DNA from: a virus
DNA length: 36,146 bases
Reading direction: 5' to 3' (one strand)
Virus record (IMG/VR): IMGVR_UViG_3300002461_000279
Coordinates: 1 to 36,146 of that record
In this document: in pieces, positions 2,932 to 22,716 of the stretch
How positions within the stretch are numbered: the first letter of the stretch is position 1
How the letters are laid out: every line of letters starts with the position of its first letter
Program-made: the position numbers and the translations under genes
The notes under the pieces: model-generated
What the model saw: the letters and a program-made list of their open reading frames with translations, nothing else
Told to the model about the DNA's origin: nothing
Databases searched by the model: none

Positions 2932-3514
2932 CCGATGATCTCCCTGCGCGGAATCTCAACTCGCGCGCCAGCTCTTCGTTGAACCGCCGAGCAGCCACTC
3001 GGCGCAAGATCTCGCTTATCTTGCGGTTGACCAGCCCGCTAGGGATAGACACGGAGAACAGCTCTTTCATGGTCGGCCGGCCATAGGGACGATTTGCCGA
3101 CGTCCTTTGAAATATGCCGACATGCCCTGTGCGCAGCTCCGCGACGAACGGCTTTCCCGGCAGATTCGGGTTTCCCTTCACCTGCCTGCGCGCCCCGCCT
3201 CGCAACACCTTTACCGTCACATTTCCCTTCTTGCCCTTGTTCGCCCCGAACGCAGACAGAGCCAAGCGGCGATCCTTGGCGTACACGAGCGCCTCGAGCC
3301 TGCCTGACGAGGCCTGCCGTATCTGGATGATCTTGTTCACGCGCGACGCCGCGACATTCCAGCGCTTTCGGATCTCCTTGCGAGCATCCGCGCGCACCGT
3401 CGTCGCCGCGCGATTGAGCGCCCTTGCAGTCGCTCGACCCTTCACCGCCGCGTCCAGGCTGTCGACGGCGCGCAGAGCTACGCTCAAGTCACCGCGGAGG
3501 TCGACCGTGATCAC
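2924..3514 (-). CDS. Minor tail protein, lambda gpZ-like family
   Basis: GTG at 3514 overlaps the upstream stop (GTGA). VITVDLRGDLSVALRAVDSL...RKEIRKRWNV... resembles prophage minor tail protein Z. The track ORF 2924-3646 is an N-terminal over-extension. Confidence 0.55.
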   Translation of the reverse strand: MITVDLRGDLSVALRAVDSLDAAVKGRATARALNRAATTVRADARKEIRKRWNVAASRVNKIIQIRQASSGRLEALVYAKDRRLALSAFGANKGKKGNVTVKVLRGGARRQVKGNPNLPGKPFVAELRTGHVGIFQRTSANRPYGRPTMKELFSVSIPSGLVNRKISEILRRVAARRFNEELARELRFRAGRSSGG

Positions 3515-5189: not shown

Positions 5190-5465
5190 TCAAGTCCGGT
5201 GCAGCCGCAGCACAGTAACGCCGCTGCCATCGGGCTCGATCGCTGCTACCCGGTATGTCACCGAGTTGATGAGCATCGTCGAGGTCAACGTGGCAGTCGC
5301 GACGTCTGCACTGCGACAAGTCGCCGACGGCAATACACTCGCCACCCCCAAAGAATCCGCGAACGGCGCATCGAACAGCACCGGGAAGGGCGTGCCGCCG
5401 TTGAGGGACGCTTCAACGGTGAAGTCGTCGGCGGAGTTGAAGAAGGCGGTGAGGTCGTTTGGCAT
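5190..5465 (-). CDS. Head-tail joining / head completion protein
   Basis: 91 aa, MPNDLTAFFNSADDFTVEASLNG...PDGSGVTVLRL. Size, position and pattern fit small head-tail attachment proteins. Confidence 0.5.
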   Translation of the reverse strand: MPNDLTAFFNSADDFTVEASLNGGTPFPVLFDAPFADSLGVASVLPSATCRSADVATATLTSTMLINSVTYRVAAIEPDGSGVTVLRLHRT

Positions 5466-7057
5466 TAGGTCGTCGTGCTTTTTACTTGCGTGGTGCCGAC
5501 GCCTGCCATCGTGATGTTGCCGTGATCGTGGTCAGGCGTGAATGACAAAAACATTCCGCCGCAGTTGTCGATAAAGTTGCCCCCGACAATAGCGCCGTAT
5601 ACGTTTCCAGCGATGCCAGCACCGTCGATGAAGTAGGTGTACTCCGCTTGCGTAGGGTCGCTCCAACTACCTCGCCCAATGTTTCCCTGGATCACCAAGC
5701 CACGTATGGACGCACCAGCCGCCACATCAATGTCAATGTACGGGTAGGTGTCATCGGGCACAGAGTCGTTCTGAAAGCCGATATTCCCGACAATGTTCAG
5801 TCCGCGTAGAATCGACGTGCCGGTCACTGCCACTCGAATGTGCGGCCCATAACTCACGTCCATTTTGTTTCCGATAACCGCTACAGAGCCCGCAACCGCA
5901 GCCAAAGATTGCGAAATCAATATGGCACCACCTAGCATGGTGGACGCGGTGGCGTCCTTCCATATGTGGTTGCCCATAATGAGCGTGTCATCGCTACTGT
6001 TTGTTCTCACACCAAAGAACCCGTTTCCGGCTCCTGTCACGATGTTTGAAATAAACCGAACGTCACCCTCCAGTTCGCACACATGATTCTGGTTTGATCC
6101 GATGAAACAGTTGTTTTGTGCCACCCCGGTTGGCCCGGATTGATACACTACCCCCTGTCCACGAATTATGGTGCAGTTATAGACGTGGTTTGTACGCGAA
6201 CCACCGGGTAGGCCGGAAGCGTCAAGGTTCCTGTTTGATAGGTTCATACAGTCAAGAACCATGCTTCTTAGCGTTGCGCCTTGTGGGTTGGTGAAGCTGG
6301 TGTCACCCATAGTCCACATCGAGGATGGCGTTTGCGCTGTGATGTTCCGCATCAACACCAAGCAACTTCCGCGGTGCCGAAAATCTTTTGCCTTACCGCC
6401 AGAAGGATAGTGCGCTGACCCCTCGACAGTCGTTCCGGTTGGCTGTCGATGTGAAGTCGTCGTGCAAGTAATTCCTACGGGGAATCGTACGGTGCCATTC
6501 GCGACTTTTGCCGCCGCTAGCGCTGCAGTGATCGCCGCAGAGTCGTCAGTCCCATACACGAAGGTCGCGCCTGTAATTGCGCCAGGCGTGCCACTCAAAG
6601 AGGTTGTGCATACGGTTGCGCTCGTAACGTTGGTGATCGTGCCCCATCGAGACGTCATGCCCGTGTCGTTGTACGGCACTATTGCGCACGATTTTCCAAT
6701 GTCCGAAGCTCGGAACGATGCGCTTGCAGATGTGATCGTCGAAGTGGCCGAGTCGGTAGCCGTCGCGTCATACACGGCCAGACCATCACATTTAGCGCCG
6801 AACGCGCGAACATCGAAAGCGCCCGCAAGCATGATCGGTCGCCCGTTCGATCCGATCATGCCTATGATGTTGCCCGCAGCATCTAGCGCATACTCTGCGC
6901 GCCCAATCGGGAGCGCAGAGAACGCCTCATATGAAAGCGATTCCGCTATGCCGTACGAGACCCATTCCGCCTCGATGCCTGCGGATCTGGTGAGAACGGT
7001 TCCGGCCGCCTGCTCTACCCCATCGACGAGAACAGCTTTTAGTAGTCGCACAGTCAT
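5465..7057 (-). CDS. Right-handed beta-helix protein, pectate-lyase-3 / tailspike-depolymerase-like
   Basis: 530 aa from ATG 7057 (SD AGGGG). It carries FGAKCDG...DDSAAITAALAAA..NGTVRFPVG, then Asn/Gly/Ile-rich repeats (IVGNIGF, VIQGNIGRG, IVGGNFIDN). The DNA is visibly AT-richer than its neighbours. Confidence 0.7.
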   Translation of the reverse strand: MTVRLLKAVLVDGVEQAAGTVLTRSAGIEAEWVSYGIAESLSYEAFSALPIGRAEYALDAAGNIIGMIGSNGRPIMLAGAFDVRAFGAKCDGLAVYDATATDSATSTITSASASFRASDIGKSCAIVPYNDTGMTSRWGTITNVTSATVCTTSLSGTPGAITGATFVYGTDDSAAITAALAAAKVANGTVRFPVGITCTTTSHRQPTGTTVEGSAHYPSGGKAKDFRHRGSCLVLMRNITAQTPSSMWTMGDTSFTNPQGATLRSMVLDCMNLSNRNLDASGLPGGSRTNHVYNCTIIRGQGVVYQSGPTGVAQNNCFIGSNQNHVCELEGDVRFISNIVTGAGNGFFGVRTNSSDDTLIMGNHIWKDATASTMLGGAILISQSLAAVAGSVAVIGNKMDVSYGPHIRVAVTGTSILRGLNIVGNIGFQNDSVPDDTYPYIDIDVAAGASIRGLVIQGNIGRGSWSDPTQAEYTYFIDGAGIAGNVYGAIVGGNFIDNCGGMFLSFTPDHDHGNITMAGVGTTQVKSTTT

Positions 7058-7071
7058 AGCGGAGCCCCTGC

Positions 7072-7458
7072 TTACACGTACTTCGGATGAGCCAGCATCG
7101 ACACAGCCACGAGCGCAGCGCCGGTGACGACAGTGCCGACAACGCGAACGAAGCCCCGCACCGCGCTGGCCGGGATCACGCATTTCTGCACGAGCGGATC
7201 ATTCGAGGTCGTCACCGCCGTAAGCGCGCCGCCGGTCGGCACGATGGCCTCGCCGCCTGTGCCCGAGTTGTCGGTGGCGTGCTCGAACGTCCACGTGATC
7301 GAGCCCGCCGCGACAGCGCCGGTGTAGACGGTGAAGCACAGATCGCCTTCGTACTTGCGGCAATCGATCCATGCACTGGTAGCCGCGGCCGTGTTGGCTG
7401 CAGACTGCGGCGCAAGGAAAGCCACTACCTCGCACGCCTGCCCTTGATTTCCCAGCAT
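7072..7458 (-). CDS. Hypothetical head-associated protein
   Basis: 128 aa, same strand, in the head module downstream of the capsid gene. No family recognised. Confidence 0.55.
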   Translation of the reverse strand: MLGNQGQACEVVAFLAPQSAANTAAATSAWIDCRKYEGDLCFTVYTGAVAAGSITWTFEHATDNSGTGGEAIVPTGGALTAVTTSNDPLVQKCVIPASAVRGFVRVVGTVVTGAALVAVSMLAHPKYV

Positions 7459-19273: not shown

Positions 19274-19336
19274 CAAGCCCGCGCTTGATGCTTTCCTGGT
19301 GCGCGGCAAGTTCCTTCGCCTCGTCAATCCAGGCCA

Positions 19337-19675
19337 TCACGCAGCCCCCTGTCCAGTCGCCTCAGGTTCCGGCAGCGGCTGCAGCCGCGGTGAACATCCC
19401 GTCGCTTGAGCCGCCTCGGCTTCCGGCATTCCGCCTACAGAGGCGGTGGGTTCAAGCGGGTACAGGTCCGGGCGTAACTCATGGCGTGTCACCCGGCCGC
19501 CGGTGGCACGCTCGACAGGTATCGCCATATCTGGTGGCACACGACCTGCGCGGATCCACTTCCATACGTGGCCCTGTCGGATAGGCCGACTCGTGAGCTG
19601 CGCAATCCTGCGAGCGAGTTCCGACTGGCTCGTCGCCTCACTCACCGCCGTCTCGAGGGCTTCCTTCATGCTCAC
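19337..19675 (-). CDS. Cro / YdaS-family HTH regulator
   Basis: SQSELARRIAQ...VWKWIRAGRVPPDMAIPVERATGGRVTRHELRPDLY matches the YdaS/Cro pattern. GTG 19675 lies 6 nt after AAGGAG; an alternative ATG is at 19669. It is divergent from the repressor. Confidence 0.75.
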   Translation of the reverse strand: MSMKEALETAVSEATSQSELARRIAQLTSRPIRQGHVWKWIRAGRVPPDMAIPVERATGGRVTRHELRPDLYPLEPTASVGGMPEAEAAQATGCSPRLQPLPEPEATGQGAA

Positions 19676-19680
19676 AGAAA

Positions 19681-19733
19681 ACTCCTTTAGTAGTATTTCA
19701 TCGTACCGCCGAAGTAGTTTCCAAGTCAACTAC
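19681..19733. promoter_or_regulatory. Operator-like sites in the repressor/cro intergenic region
   Basis: ACTCCTTTAGTAGT at 19681-19694 matches 12 of 14 positions of the palindrome at 22172 and 22194. The inverted repeat GTAGTT-N8-AACTAC at 19714-19733 overlaps the -35 of the PR-like promoter. Confidence 0.55.
19700..19729 (-). promoter_or_regulatory. PR-like sigma70 promoter for the cro-like gene
   Basis: Minus strand TTGACT (19729-19724), 18 nt spacer, TACGAT (19705-19700), then AAGGAG and GTG. Confidence 0.6.
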
Positions 19734-19742
19734 GATAGGAGT

Positions 19743-20390
19743 ATGAAAACTTTTGGCGATCGGCTGCGCGAGGCTCGAAAAAGAAAAGGGCTGACCCAGG
19801 CTCAACTAGCGGGCGCAGCCGGCATGTCTCAGAAGACCATTTCTAAAATCGAACGCGGAGACCAAGCCGCCTCGACGTCCGTAGCCCAACTGGCCCGCGC
19901 CGTTGGGGTGACAGCGCTTTGGCTGACCGAAGGCAGGGACTCACCCGCACCAACGGTAGCGGAAGACCGCCTTCCGTACGATATCGGGCAAGTACCCGTA
20001 GTTGGAACAGTGCAGGCGGGCGACGAAGGATACTGGGAGGAATTGCAGTACCCCACTGGACACGGGGACGGATTTATTCGCTACCCAAGCCGCGACCCGA
20101 ACGCCTACGCCCTACGCGTAAAGGGTGATTCCATGCGCCCCCGAATCAAGCCGGGCGAGTTCCTGCTCGTAGAGCCGAATTCGGCCGTAATCCCTGGCGA
20201 GGAAGTTATCGTGACAACGGTCGACGGACGCTCGATGGTGAAGATCCTCGGGCCGCGCCGAGACGGCATGATCGAACTACAGAGCATCAACGAGGATCAC
20301 CGTCCGATCACCATTGACGAAAGCCAGGTTCGAGCCATGCACTACGTCGCCGGGATCGTCAAAGCGAGTCGCTACTACCGCGACAACTAG
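19743..20390 (+). CDS. CI/LexA-type repressor, XRE HTH plus S24 peptidase
   Basis: MKTFGDRLREARKRKGLTQAQLA...QKTISKIERG is an XRE HTH. It has an Ala-Gly candidate cleavage site (VQAGDEG), GDSM serine and a downstream Lys (MVKIL). SD AGGAG precedes ATG 19743. The track ORF from 19446 is over-extended. Confidence 0.9.
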   Translation: MKTFGDRLREARKRKGLTQAQLAGAAGMSQKTISKIERGDQAASTSVAQLARAVGVTALWLTEGRDSPAPTVAEDRLPYDIGQVPVVGTVQAGDEGYWEELQYPTGHGDGFIRYPSRDPNAYALRVKGDSMRPRIKPGEFLLVEPNSAVIPGEEVIVTTVDGRSMVKILGPRRDGMIELQSINEDHRPITIDESQVRAMHYVAGIVKASRYYRDN

Positions 20391-20416
20391 CGTACCCATT
20401 GCTGGGGGAGATCGAC

Positions 20417-20902
20417 GTGTCGCTGGAAGGTCTGACCGACGAAAAAATTATCGAGTTGATCGCCTGCACGAAGCGGGTGAAGAACCCATCCGCGCGGGAA
20501 AAAACCGAGGGGAAGCACGTCCGGCGTGATTACCAGGTTTTGAGCGACGACGGTCGGCATGAGTTTGTGCTATTTACTCGCCAAAGCACGATCATCCCCG
20601 GCAGCTATACCGCCGGCCTGCGCTGGAAATCTCGCTCGGGAGAGGATGTCATTCTTCTCCGGTGCAACGGTAACGACCATGAGCACGCCAATCCCCTAGA
20701 AAAGCACCGGTTCGCGGGCACGCCGCATGTGCACCAAGCCACGGAGCGCTACATTTCGGCGGGTAAGAAGGTCGAGACGTTTGCCGAGCCGTCCAGCGAG
20801 TACCGCACCCTGAGCGGGGCCTTGCATCACGTGATGAAGCTGGCCAATATCAGCGGACTCGAGAGCGAACCAGACCAGCGGGATCTTTGGGAAAGTGCGT
20901 GA
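20417..20902 (+). CDS. Orphan 161-aa His-rich protein, cassette gene A
   Basis: GTG 20417 lies 6 nt after GGGGAG, 26 nt after the repressor stop; an alternative TTG is at 20399. Contains RCNGNDHEHANPLEKHRFAGTPHVHQATERY. No family confidently recognised. The DNA is AT-richer. Confidence 0.7.
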   Translation: MSLEGLTDEKIIELIACTKRVKNPSAREKTEGKHVRRDYQVLSDDGRHEFVLFTRQSTIIPGSYTAGLRWKSRSGEDVILLRCNGNDHEHANPLEKHRFAGTPHVHQATERYISAGKKVETFAEPSSEYRTLSGALHHVMKLANISGLESEPDQRDLWESA

Positions 20903-21675
20903 TGCAGGCAGAAGAAATTAAGCAGCTCGTCTGCCGAGCACTGTGCGGCGAAGCGTCGCTCAGTGAGGTGCAGCCGGATCTATGGCAAGTGCGAACGCCG
21001 TTCCGCTTCCCCGACGGCGACGCCTACACCGTCTATCTCCGCCCTCTCCCGGCGGGCGGGTTTCGCATCACAGATGCCGGCTCGACGCTGATGCACCTGA
21101 GCTACGAAAACGATATCGACAAGCTGCGCGAAGGCTCCCGCGGGCGCCTCCTTCACCAGGTGATCGCCGACTCCGACGTGCGAGAAGACGACGGCGAGTT
21201 CTTTGTCGACACATCGGTAGACGGCATCGGGCGCGCTCTGTTCGAGTTCGGCCAGGCGATGACCCGCGTGCACGATCTTACGTTCCTGAACCGGCTTCGC
21301 GTGGAAAGTACGTTTTACGAGGACCTCCGGGAAACCCTGCGCGACATTATTGGCCCAGAACGCATCCACGAGAACTATGTGGTGCCTGGAGTACCGAAGG
21401 CATCTGAGTATCCGGTGGATTACTTCATCGAGGGACGGACGAGCCCCGTCTATCTTTTTGGGGTCCCGAACCGGGATAAGGCGCGACTGGCGACGATCAT
21501 ACTTCTGCACCTCATTGCCGCCGGGCGCGACTTTAACTCCATGATCGTCTTTCAGAACATGGCCGATCTGCCGCGACCGGACGTCAGTCGACTCACCAAC
21601 GCAGCCAACGACCAGGTTGACTCCCTCGACGCACGCTCAGACTTGGAGCGAAAGCTCCTTCGGCGGGTGAAATGA
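20902..21675 (+). CDS. DUF1828 (N) plus DUF1829 (C)-like protein, cassette gene B
   Basis: ATG 20902 shares its A with the gene A stop (TGATG). RTPFRFPDGDAYTVYLRPL..GGFRITDAGSTLMHL...GRLLHQVI..., and then SEYPVDYFIEG..PVYLFGV, fit my memory of the DUF1828/DUF1829 architecture. Confidence 0.7.
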   Translation: MQAEEIKQLVCRALCGEASLSEVQPDLWQVRTPFRFPDGDAYTVYLRPLPAGGFRITDAGSTLMHLSYENDIDKLREGSRGRLLHQVIADSDVREDDGEFFVDTSVDGIGRALFEFGQAMTRVHDLTFLNRLRVESTFYEDLRETLRDIIGPERIHENYVVPGVPKASEYPVDYFIEGRTSPVYLFGVPNRDKARLATIILLHLIAAGRDFNSMIVFQNMADLPRPDVSRLTNAANDQVDSLDARSDLERKLLRRVK

Positions 21676-21767
21676 GCGTCGACACTGCCATCGCCATCGG
21701 CCTCCTGATCGCCATCGCTATGATTACGGCAGCCAGCACCCTTCGCGACCGACAGGATAGGAAGTGA
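21672..21767 (+). CDS. Unannotated 31-aa single-pass membrane peptide, cassette gene C
   Basis: ATG 21672 overlaps the gene B stop (ATGA) and TGA 21765-21767 overlaps the lipoprotein GTG (GTGA). Product is MSVDTAIAIGLLIAIAMITAASTLRDRQDRK. It is below the track length cut-off. Confidence 0.55.
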   Translation: MSVDTAIAIGLLIAIAMITAASTLRDRQDRK

Positions 21768-22126
21768 AACTCACCACCAGCGGTCGTCTACCACGCATAG
21801 CCGTTTTGCTGTGCGCTGCGACGTTGTCCTCCTGCGCGACTTCCACGTACGCGCCTATCTCCGTGTGCACCGGACCCGTAGCCGAGGTTCGCGTATTGCG
21901 CTCACTCCCACCCGAAGGAACCTTCACGCGGTGCGGCACCATTCGCATAGAAGGAGGCGGGTTTACCACCGAACAGACAGTAATGCAGTCCGCGATTGAT
22001 GAGGCACGAAGACACGGCGCGAATGCCTTAGTGATCGTTGATCAGCCAGATCCACGATTCACTTGGGCCAAGAGCTACACGCGCAGCGGGACTGCAATTG
22101 CAATAAGGCTACGATCTAGCCAATAG
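21764..22126 (+). CDS. Lipoprotein, DUF4156-like, cassette gene D
   Basis: The signal peptide has lipobox LSS|C (MKLTTSGRLPRIAVLLCAATLSSCAT). VRVL...PPEG..C..G.I......T....M.SAIDEARRHGANALVIV resembles DUF4156 lipoproteins. Confidence 0.75.
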   Translation: MKLTTSGRLPRIAVLLCAATLSSCATSTYAPISVCTGPVAEVRVLRSLPPEGTFTRCGTIRIEGGGFTTEQTVMQSAIDEARRHGANALVIVDQPDPRFTWAKSYTRSGTAIAIRLRSSQ

Positions 22127-22171
22127 CGGCCGTCATTTCTAGGCGCGCCGCGATATGAGCGTGCCCCGTAT

Positions 22172-22212
22172 ACTCCTTTCGGAGTTGACAATAACTCCTT
22201 TCGGAGTATTCT
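22172..22212 (+). promoter_or_regulatory. Sigma70-type promoter bracketed by two identical 14-bp palindromes
   Basis: ACTCCTTTCGGAGT at 22172-22185 and at 22194-22207. TTGACA at 22185-22190, 16 nt spacer, TATTCT at 22207-22212. GGAGG then ATG 22241 follow downstream. Confidence 0.7.
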
Positions 22213-22240
22213 AGCCTTCGTCACCCCCGACGGAGGCCCC

Positions 22241-22462
22241 ATGTTACGAGCCCGCTTCAAACAGTCTGTATACGCAATTCAGCACTGCAGCACTGGTTTT
22301 TGCCTGCAGCTGTCCGCACCGCCCGATGACGGTAGCGCCCGCCCTGACACCACACTGACGCTGCCCGGCCTGGCGACGCACTTCCCCACTCGCGCCGAGG
22401 CCGAGCTCGCCTATGCCAGTCTTGGCCCGTCTCTGTGCGAGATCGTGAGGTTCGACGCATGA
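22241..22462 (+). CDS. Hypothetical protein, 73 aa
   Basis: GGAGG SD. First gene after the operator-flanked promoter. Confidence 0.6.
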   Translation: MLRARFKQSVYAIQHCSTGFCLQLSAPPDDGSARPDTTLTLPGLATHFPTRAEAELAYASLGPSLCEIVRFDA

Positions 22463-22716
22463 AGCGCTCGATCACCATCGCGGTCCACGGCGATACCATC
22501 GACCAGATCCGCCAGGCCATGCAGGCCGCCGGCCTTAAACCGATGACCGAGCACGAGATCGCCTGCATGGCGACGAACCTCGGCCTGCGCGACATCCTCG
22601 GCTCTTACACCAAACTAGCCGATATCGAGCGGGCCTACGCGGCTCGCCAATCACCCGAGCCCATGGTCACCGGCACGGCATGGGAGGGCGCGCTCGAGGA
22701 AAGGCAGGCGTCATGA
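22459..22716 (+). CDS. Hypothetical protein, 85 aa
   Basis: ATG 22459 overlaps the upstream stop (ATGA). MKRSITIAVHGDTIDQIRQAM... Confidence 0.6.
   Translation: MKRSITIAVHGDTIDQIRQAMQAAGLKPMTEHEIACMATNLGLRDILGSYTKLADIERAYAARQSPEPMVTGTAWEGALEERQAS

Follow-up and report, generated by a model that had tools for sequence, protein, structure and literature searches.

A member of the catalogued defence candidate PDC-M24 downstream of the CI-type repressor of a temperate phage

What is carried in the slot directly behind the repressor gene of a temperate phage, and which of the genes found there belong together? This question is raised by four closely packed open reading frames (ORFs) in IMG/VR virus record IMGVR_UViG_3300002461_000279, of which positions 1 to 36,146 (36,146 nucleotides, hereafter the window) were analysed. 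PHROG matches to terminase, portal, major head, tail, tape-measure, endolysin, integrase, primase and ParB-like proteins identify the window as DNA of a temperate phage. Immediately 3' of its CI-type repressor gene (cI), on the same strand, lie gene A (161 amino acids, aa), gene B (257 aa), an ORF for a hydrophobic peptide (31 aa) and a lipoprotein gene (120 aa) (Table 1). A first-pass annotation, made from the DNA alone, had taken the four for a candidate undescribed system of defence or exclusion that is expressed in lysogens, two of its components being cytoplasmic and two belonging to the envelope. The reading favoured here, with slightly better than even confidence, is that A and B form an anti-phage module within a lambda-like immunity operon and that the lipoprotein gene behind them is an unrelated unit. 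The annotation is in this way partly supported: it placed the genes in the correct slot and assigned A-B to the probable functional class, and erred on the unit, which consists of two genes and not four.

A scan with the PADLOC-DB library of hidden Markov models (HMMs) showed that both genes match the candidate defence system PDC-M24. The product of A matched PDC-M24A (E-value 8.2e-7, 27.5 bits), with residues 6-145 aligned to positions 3-134 of the 146 in the model, while B matched two PDC-M24B models (E-values 1.1e-14 and 6.2e-14; 52.6 bits). The two window genes are adjacent, on one strand and in the same order as in PDC-M24, and, like other PDC entries, A-B is found in prophages and beside genes of restriction-modification (RM) type. 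Judged by these matches, A-B is a member of the catalogued PADLOC candidate PDC-M24 and not a new four-gene system. As PADLOC-DB lists PDC-M24, A-B is not undescribed in the strict sense, and the earlier statement that it could be matched to no named defence family does not hold. The likeness differs from a full identification in that the matches are modest and PDC-M24 was predicted by computation, neither a phenotype nor a mechanism having been published for it. PADLOC PDC candidates are unpublished and not experimentally verified (PMC11811056, PMC12409345).

Gene A had been taken for an orphan, a description refuted by its matches to DUF6978 and phrog_27326 (Table 1) and by the 99 clusters of homologues that were found. 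Homologues of A start at the equivalent residue (MSxxTLTD), which supports GTG 20417 as its start codon. For B, the expected likeness to DUF1828 was borne out (Table 1), but that to DUF1829 was not: among 73 family members (window B and 72 relatives) neither DUF1829, at an E-value of up to 1, nor any second Pfam domain was identified, and DUF1829 does accompany DUF1828 in a distant B homologue of Streptococcus phage MissF.

The distribution of the pair was examined in 102 comparison loci encoding a B homologue, from 80 GTDB species genomes, 19 IMG/VR records and three sequenced phages, in which A was detected with an HMM derived from its homologues. A is the immediate 5' neighbour of B in approximately 95 of the 102, mostly with an overlap of 4 nt or 1 nt; in the window the stop codon of A and the start codon of B share TGATG (20900-20904), a gene overlap of 1 nt. 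These loci span Betaproteobacteria, Bacteroidota, Chlorobi, Acidobacteriota and phages, and searches with B-type queries returned 1276 and 828 protein clusters (90% identity) from Proteobacteria, Bacteroidota, Chlorobi and phages of Firmicutes. From gene order and overlap, A-B is a tightly conserved, mobile and translationally coupled two-gene module.

The same loci bear on whether all four genes could work together as a single integrated system of defence or exclusion that joins cytoplasmic to envelope components. In the window the four lie on one strand with overlapping stop and start codons, as first described, no promoter or terminator motif occurs between them above chance, and the operon of Pseudomonas phage 5371 likewise includes a small protein with two hydrophobic helices, though this one is encoded on the 5' side of A and shares no homology with the window peptide. 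However, homologues of the peptide and lipoprotein were found in none of the 102 other A-B loci, a small hydrophobic ORF of any kind follows B in just two of 97 other loci, and relatives of the lipoprotein occur without A-B. In phage 5371, furthermore, B is followed directly after its stop codon by a hairpin (GCCCCGC-ACCC-GCGGGGC, approximately 5786-5809) and then TTTTCG. The absence of the envelope genes from every other A-B locus argues against a four-gene system, which is the least probable of the explanations considered and is regarded as highly improbable. What is conserved of the neighbourhood is A-B.

Two small ORFs at other A-B loci are recorded here as observations. The 84-aa protein of phage 5371 (locus L001, 4179-4433) possesses two hydrophobic helices and is encoded between cI and A rather than 3' of B. 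At locus L102 (IMG/VR 2778260925_000002), a 78-aa ORF begins 18 nt past the B stop codon, with an internal segment resembling a signal peptide (MKKVVLAIAASAVALLSVTPAFA) and a His/Cys-rich tail (YEHHHAVCHKVKVHHHWEKRCH).

The lipoprotein is, on the evidence of its family, a genuine gene. It possesses a signal peptide and the lipobox LLCAATLSSC, and Cys24 is nearly invariant in 20 aligned family members, which confirms LSSC as a real lipobox. The family is rare, with 38 clusters at an E-value of up to 1e-3 when 1.84 billion representatives were searched exhaustively with HMMER. The relatives lie on short metagenomic contigs in which phage genes could not be recognised, in some cases next to genes for other lipoproteins; IMG/VR yielded none of them, and no membrane peptide was found upstream of them. 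A weak signal resembling DUF1471/YdgH-BhsA (periplasmic proteins) was detected for the lipoprotein, while neither it nor the peptide gave a match in Pfam, PHROGs, PADLOC or NCBIfam. The peptide ORF has a G+C content at third codon positions (GC3) of 0.75, as expected for a coding frame, and is too short and isolated for a confident call, leaving its coding status uncertain. These searches are best interpreted in terms of a lipoprotein gene that, whether or not the peptide goes with it, forms a unit of its own, specific to this phage and independent of A-B. Its product may have a distinct role at the envelope, such as exclusion or a contribution to host fitness. Like the moron and exclusion lipoproteins Llp of phage T5, Cor of phi80 and N15, Ltp of TP-J34 and Bor of lambda, it combines a signal peptide and a lipobox, here in a 120-aa product, and is encoded in a region of a temperate phage that is putatively expressed in lysogens; it differs from them in lacking a Pfam or PHROG match and in belonging to a family found mostly outside phages.

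The position of A-B relative to repressor genes differs between phages and chromosomes. Among 21 phage and prophage loci (the window and Pseudomonas phages included; a Streptococcus phage with the same order is outside this count), 20 have an S24-type repressor gene upstream of A on the same strand, no further than 3 kb away and, in seven, no further than 150 nt. The gene order in phage 5371 is cro, cI, the 84-aa gene, A and B. A palindrome, AACAGCACTGCTGTT, present in its cro/cI region (3309-3323) occurs again around TTGACC 3' of B (approximately 6139-6174), and this recurrence, together with the hairpin after B, suggests that A-B in phage 5371 also ends an operator-bounded cI operon. In Streptococcus phage MissF the order is a helix-turn-helix (HTH) gene, a DUF6978 gene (E-value 6e-34), a gene for a DUF1828+DUF1829 protein, a 198-aa gene and an integrase gene. 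A circular element of Staphylococcus epidermidis (L114; NZ_CP121492, 41.6 kb) has, in this order, genes for an XRE regulator, for a DUF1828 protein and for integrase; it is recorded as a plasmid but, given this lysogeny-module gene order, is probably a circularised prophage or phage-plasmid.

Such linkage might indicate that A-B serves the phage's own decision between lysis and lysogeny, for instance as a sensor or modulator of the repressor in the manner of the ImmA protease and ImmR. The 20 repressor-linked phage loci and the Streptococcus and Staphylococcus elements are compatible with this role, as is a cluster of conserved histidines in A that could be the site of a metalloenzyme. The 73 chromosomal loci, by contrast, all lack an S24-type repressor in the 3 kb that precede A, and such repressor-free copies, which are those most similar to A-B of the window, argue against a function in lysogeny control. 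Furthermore, A contains no HEXXH motif and gave no match of ImmA/COG2856 type. This role is considered very unlikely. In a neighbour-joining tree of B, the window copy lies inside a chromosomal betaproteobacterial clade (67% identity to L032/L004), apart from the clade holding nearly all phage copies. Its grouping with chromosomal copies points to a separate capture, and suggests that the module entered the slot behind cI more than once.

In chromosomes the gene upstream of A-B is co-oriented in 50 of 70 loci, with a gap of 150 nt or less in 38. Pfam analysis of 61 immediate upstream neighbours identified an MmeI-type methylase in six, N6_N4_Mtase in four and Eco57I in three, so that a methylase would stand immediately upstream in about one in five chromosomal loci if those matches do not overlap. 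PADLOC models for type IIG and type III RM, for DrmMI/DrmD of DISARM, for BrxH and for mad2 recur among the three genes upstream; these counts of defence neighbours are raw, with no formal background control. It is as if the module rides on RM operons, with MmeI-type (type IIG) domains in at most six of the 61 neighbours. Linkage to repressors in phages and RM-type neighbours in chromosomes may reasonably be taken, on gene order, as indirect evidence for an anti-phage role of A-B in lysogens. As a separate observation, at 12 GTDB loci (L006, L007, L012, L014, L020, L027, L037, L046, L051, L069, L079 and L083) A-B is located 10-115 nt 3' of a co-oriented gene encoding a protein of 550-1200 aa.

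A compact, overlapping gene pair with a patchy, mobile spread across phyla, present in several genomes as a single insertion among housekeeping genes, is also what would be expected of a selfish toxin-antitoxin or addiction module that stabilises its carrier element and has no anti-phage role. A precedent of interest is HipAD (DS-6), a two-gene system validated by DefensePredictor that consists of a HipA-like kinase and a DUF3037-DUF1829 partner proposed to be antitoxin-like (PMC13092281). A-B resembles it in having two genes and, through the DUF1828+DUF1829 homologue of phage MissF, in the presence of DUF1829 in the second protein. It differs in that no HipA-like kinase or DUF3037 is present, the partner is a DUF6978 protein and window B does not reach DUF1829. 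A search of 67 A and 73 B family members against Pfam and NCBIfam identified no toxin, antitoxin or DNA-binding domain, and hence no recognisable autoregulator, while repeated sites behind cI and by RM, DISARM and BREX-type genes are more typical of defence. A purely selfish module is therefore held to be unlikely, toxin-antitoxin function and defence by abortive infection not being mutually exclusive.

The favoured reading places A-B within an immunity operon, and the region around it (19300-22700) was read with all ORFs listed. A 14-bp palindrome, ACTCCTTTCGGAGT, occurs in exact form only at 22172-22185 and 22194-22207, with a spacing of 22 nt, around the -35 element of a promoter-like sequence 3' of the lipoprotein gene, and twice in imperfect form between cI and the divergent cro-like gene (Table 1). 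At up to three mismatches there are five copies, and as this count was reached in five of 100 shuffled sequences the number itself is not beyond chance; what matters is placement, four of the five copies lying in two regulatory regions and two of those four being exact. With copies on both sides, the block from cI to the lipoprotein gene sits between an OR-like and an OL/PL-like operator set. These paired sets look like a putative lambda-style OR and OL/PL defining an immunity region, and the region as a whole is best explained as an immunity operon in a temperate phage of lambda-like type, with cI, accessory genes and operators on both sides. A promoter-like site (TTGACT-18-TACGAT, 19729-19700, minus strand) was found by the cro-like gene in a consensus scan. 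The second OR-like copy abuts the cI start codon, which is ATG 19743 and not 19746, and this hints at a leaderless or near-leaderless cI mRNA.

In phage lambda, the abortive-infection genes rexA and rexB lie directly 3' of cI in the PRM immunity operon, and RexB is a multi-pass membrane protein that serves as the ion-channel component. The earlier placement of the window genes in the rexAB-equivalent slot holds: A-B follows a CI-type repressor gene directly and on the same strand, operator-like palindromes bound the block, a PL-like operator and promoter follow it, and the conserved genes again number two. The products differ from RexA and RexB, as A and B match only DUF6978 and DUF1828, PDC-M24 and PHROGs of unknown function in Pfam, PADLOC, NCBIfam and PHROGs. 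On reading of the sequences and models (no transmembrane predictor was run), neither A nor B contains a long hydrophobic helix or transmembrane segment, in contrast to RexB, the sole hydrophobic ORF of the block being the non-conserved single-pass peptide. A-B also differs from rexAB in being widespread outside phages.

Expression together with cI is suggested by the layout of the block. The repressor gene ends with TAG 20388-20390, and the gap of 26 nt before gene A contains a Shine-Dalgarno-like sequence. These elements and the three gene junctions were read in the sequence as they had first been reported, and a consensus scan of the plus strand from cI to 22185 found no sigma-70-like promoter, in agreement with the earlier remark that no room is left for one before A. 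Terminator-like sites in the block region are no more frequent than in shuffled sequence. The final base of the lipoprotein stop codon is also the first of a stable G+C-rich hairpin (Table 1), and the RNA fold of 22095-22215 has a z-score of -2.6. The scan did not call this hairpin an intrinsic terminator; it might serve as a terminator of non-canonical type or stabilise the 3' end of the mRNA. The block might nevertheless be silent cargo, or be read in the lytic phase only from another promoter: one inside the 3' end of cI would be beyond what a consensus scan can exclude, and some chromosomal A-B loci have a divergent upstream gene, so that A-B must there have its own promoter. Against this stand the short gap with its ribosome-binding sequence, the shared strand and operator-bounded position, and the recurrence of the same arrangement in unrelated phages, and silence or separate expression is accordingly rated as quite unlikely. 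The block had also been called visibly AT-rich and moron-like, for which the support is weak: its G+C content is 0.594 and that of the whole window 0.624, a value as low is found in 7.7% of segments of the same size, and cI itself stands at 0.597. A DNA-level search of 19300-22700 against sequenced phages returned no similarity.

Table 1. Features identified in and around the putative immunity region (window coordinates)
Feature	Position	Strand	Evidence and remarks
Cro-like HTH gene	19337..19669	-	Pfam YdaS_toxin (E 4e-15); phrog_35 'transcriptional repressor' (E 1e-18); divergent from cI
OR-like region	19681..19742	.	Palindrome ACTCCTTTCGGAGT twice, each with 2 mismatches (19681-19694, 19729-19742); between cro and cI
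CI-type repressor gene (cI), 215 aa	19743..20390	+	Pfam Peptidase_S24 (E 2e-20), HTH_3 (E 2e-13); phrog_4 'transcriptional repressor' (E 2e-47)
Shine-Dalgarno-like GGGGAG	20405..20410	+	Read from sequence; followed by 6 nt and GTG 20417 of gene A
Gene A, 161 aa (PADLOC PDC-M24A)	20417..20902	+	Pfam DUF6978 (E 1e-10); phrog_27326 (E 1e-44)
Gene B, 257 aa (PADLOC PDC-M24B)	20902..21675	+	Pfam DUF1828 (E 1e-20); phrog_5059 (E 2e-43)
Hydrophobic peptide ORF, 31 aa	21672..21767	+	ATGA overlap with B (21672-21675); GTGA overlap with lipoprotein gene (21764-21767)
Lipoprotein gene, 120 aa	21764..22126	+	Lipobox LSSC; GANA(I/L)V motif; rare bacterial family
G+C-rich hairpin	22126..22151	+	GCGGCCGUC...GGCG-CGCCGC; starts at last base of lipoprotein stop codon; no T-tract
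OL/PL-like region	22172..22212	+	Exact pair of ACTCCTTTCGGAGT around -35 element of TTGACA-16-TATTCT; reads into next plus-strand genes

The predicted structure of A (AF2; pLDDT 93.3, pTM 0.87) consists of a mostly beta-strand domain and three short helices. Foldseek analysis against the PDB showed no fold match (best E-value 0.13, TM-score 0.2), and against BFVD gave a single match to an uncharacterised phage protein that is probably a distant homologue; profile searches of A and B against PDB sequences returned nothing meaningful. Eleven residues are at least 95% conserved among 84 distinct sequences (R55, Q56, R82, N84, G85, H88, H90, N92, H104, H106 and Y112), and the Streptococcus homologue keeps N84, H90, N92, H104, H106 and Y112. 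The His/Asn cluster (H88, H90, N92, H104, H106) is probably a metal-binding or catalytic site. Readings of it as cupin-like (HxH...E...H) or as a His-Me finger were rejected, the confident model matching no cupin or HNH structure.

The model of B (AF2; pLDDT 85, pTM 0.58) shows an N-terminal DUF1828 domain, a helix of 45 residues and a C-terminal domain of the order alpha-beta-beta-beta-alpha-beta. D38-G-D40, D58, D173 and K193 are at least 95% conserved, D141 is also conserved, and E135 is conserved at 85-95%; a Toprim-like reading of the DGD motif was dropped, as the order of motifs does not fit. The top Foldseek matches, none of them significant, are rich in PD-(D/E)xK nucleases, namely the CRISPR ancillary effectors Cdn1, Can2 and Card1, in which the nuclease is combined with a CARF domain, and the enzymes PspGI and EndoMS. 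B weakly resembles these in its two-domain layout, the order of its C-terminal core and the presence of conserved acidic and lysine residues. The alignments, on the other hand, have an rmsd above 10 Å, there is no PDB profile match, and in our reading of the model the DUF1828 domain does not appear to be a Rossmann-like CARF domain. A nuclease-like C-terminal domain in B is plausible but unproven.

These features suggest how A-B could work. In lysogens, transcription from the repressor promoter would continue into the pair, whose products would act inside the cell to protect it from other phages. One of the two proteins may be an effector that depends on metal, with the His/Asn cluster of A or the restriction-endonuclease-like C-terminal domain of B as its active part; the other may detect infection or restrain the effector, much as abortive-infection pairs of toxin-antitoxin-like type do. 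A bolder version holds that A-B is a mechanistically new anti-phage system in which A is a metal-dependent enzyme of novel fold and B, composed of DUF1828 and a divergent restriction-endonuclease-like domain, a sensor or co-effector. The module would carry no fixed promoter and would spread by insertion at the 3' end of constitutively expressed operons, which in phages would be the immunity operon of cI and in chromosomes those of RM systems, and such insertion would explain independent captures after cI in unrelated phages. This version is a possibility, albeit a rather doubtful one.

Several points weigh against an anti-phage role for A-B, or against parts of it. Many chromosomal copies sit among housekeeping genes, and co-transcription with cI is deduced only from spacing and from the absence of promoter and terminator motifs. 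No relative of known activity, in structure or sequence, was identified for A. The PDC-M24B match of B covers its N-terminal half only (model positions approximately 18-146 of 255), its best PDB matches in Foldseek (Cdn1, Can2, Card1, PspGI, EndoMS and AF2093) are non-significant (E-values 0.02-0.5, TM-scores of 0.34 or less), and the canonical (D/E)xK is absent from the third strand, though the order of secondary structure fits a PD-(D/E)xK core. Two other PDC candidates gave no defence when tested in a native host (PMC12409345), and no experimental report on PDC-M24 or DUF6978 was found in the literature searched, in which PDC-M24 is not mentioned, DUF6978 appears incidentally in Staphylococcus aureus omics studies and DUF1828 incidentally in an S. 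aureus typing table. A paper on repressor-linked exclusion genes of Fc02 proved to concern unrelated ORFs.

The anti-phage module in the lambda-like immunity operon is retained as the favoured reading, and A-B is regarded as a good lead for a prophage defence system, the defence role being deduced from gene content and context. The lead is sound but unsurprising, because accessory genes adjacent to prophage repressors are expected to include defence genes. Should A-B prove active, a widespread computational candidate would join the validated defence systems, a function would be obtained for DUF6978, DUF1828 and the DUF1829-like C-terminus, and rexAB would no longer be the only clear example of a defence pair within a repressor operon. 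Homologues are available in cultured phages, namely Pseudomonas aeruginosa phages 5371, 5399 and phita81A and Streptococcus phage MissF, making the hypothesis cheap to test.

Elsewhere in the window, an ORF of 572 aa (5465-7183, minus strand) gave no relative among PDB sequences. It has the lowest G+C content among the genes measured (0.56) and a flat GC3 of 0.60, compared with approximately 0.8 in the adjacent structural genes, and may be a recently acquired gene.

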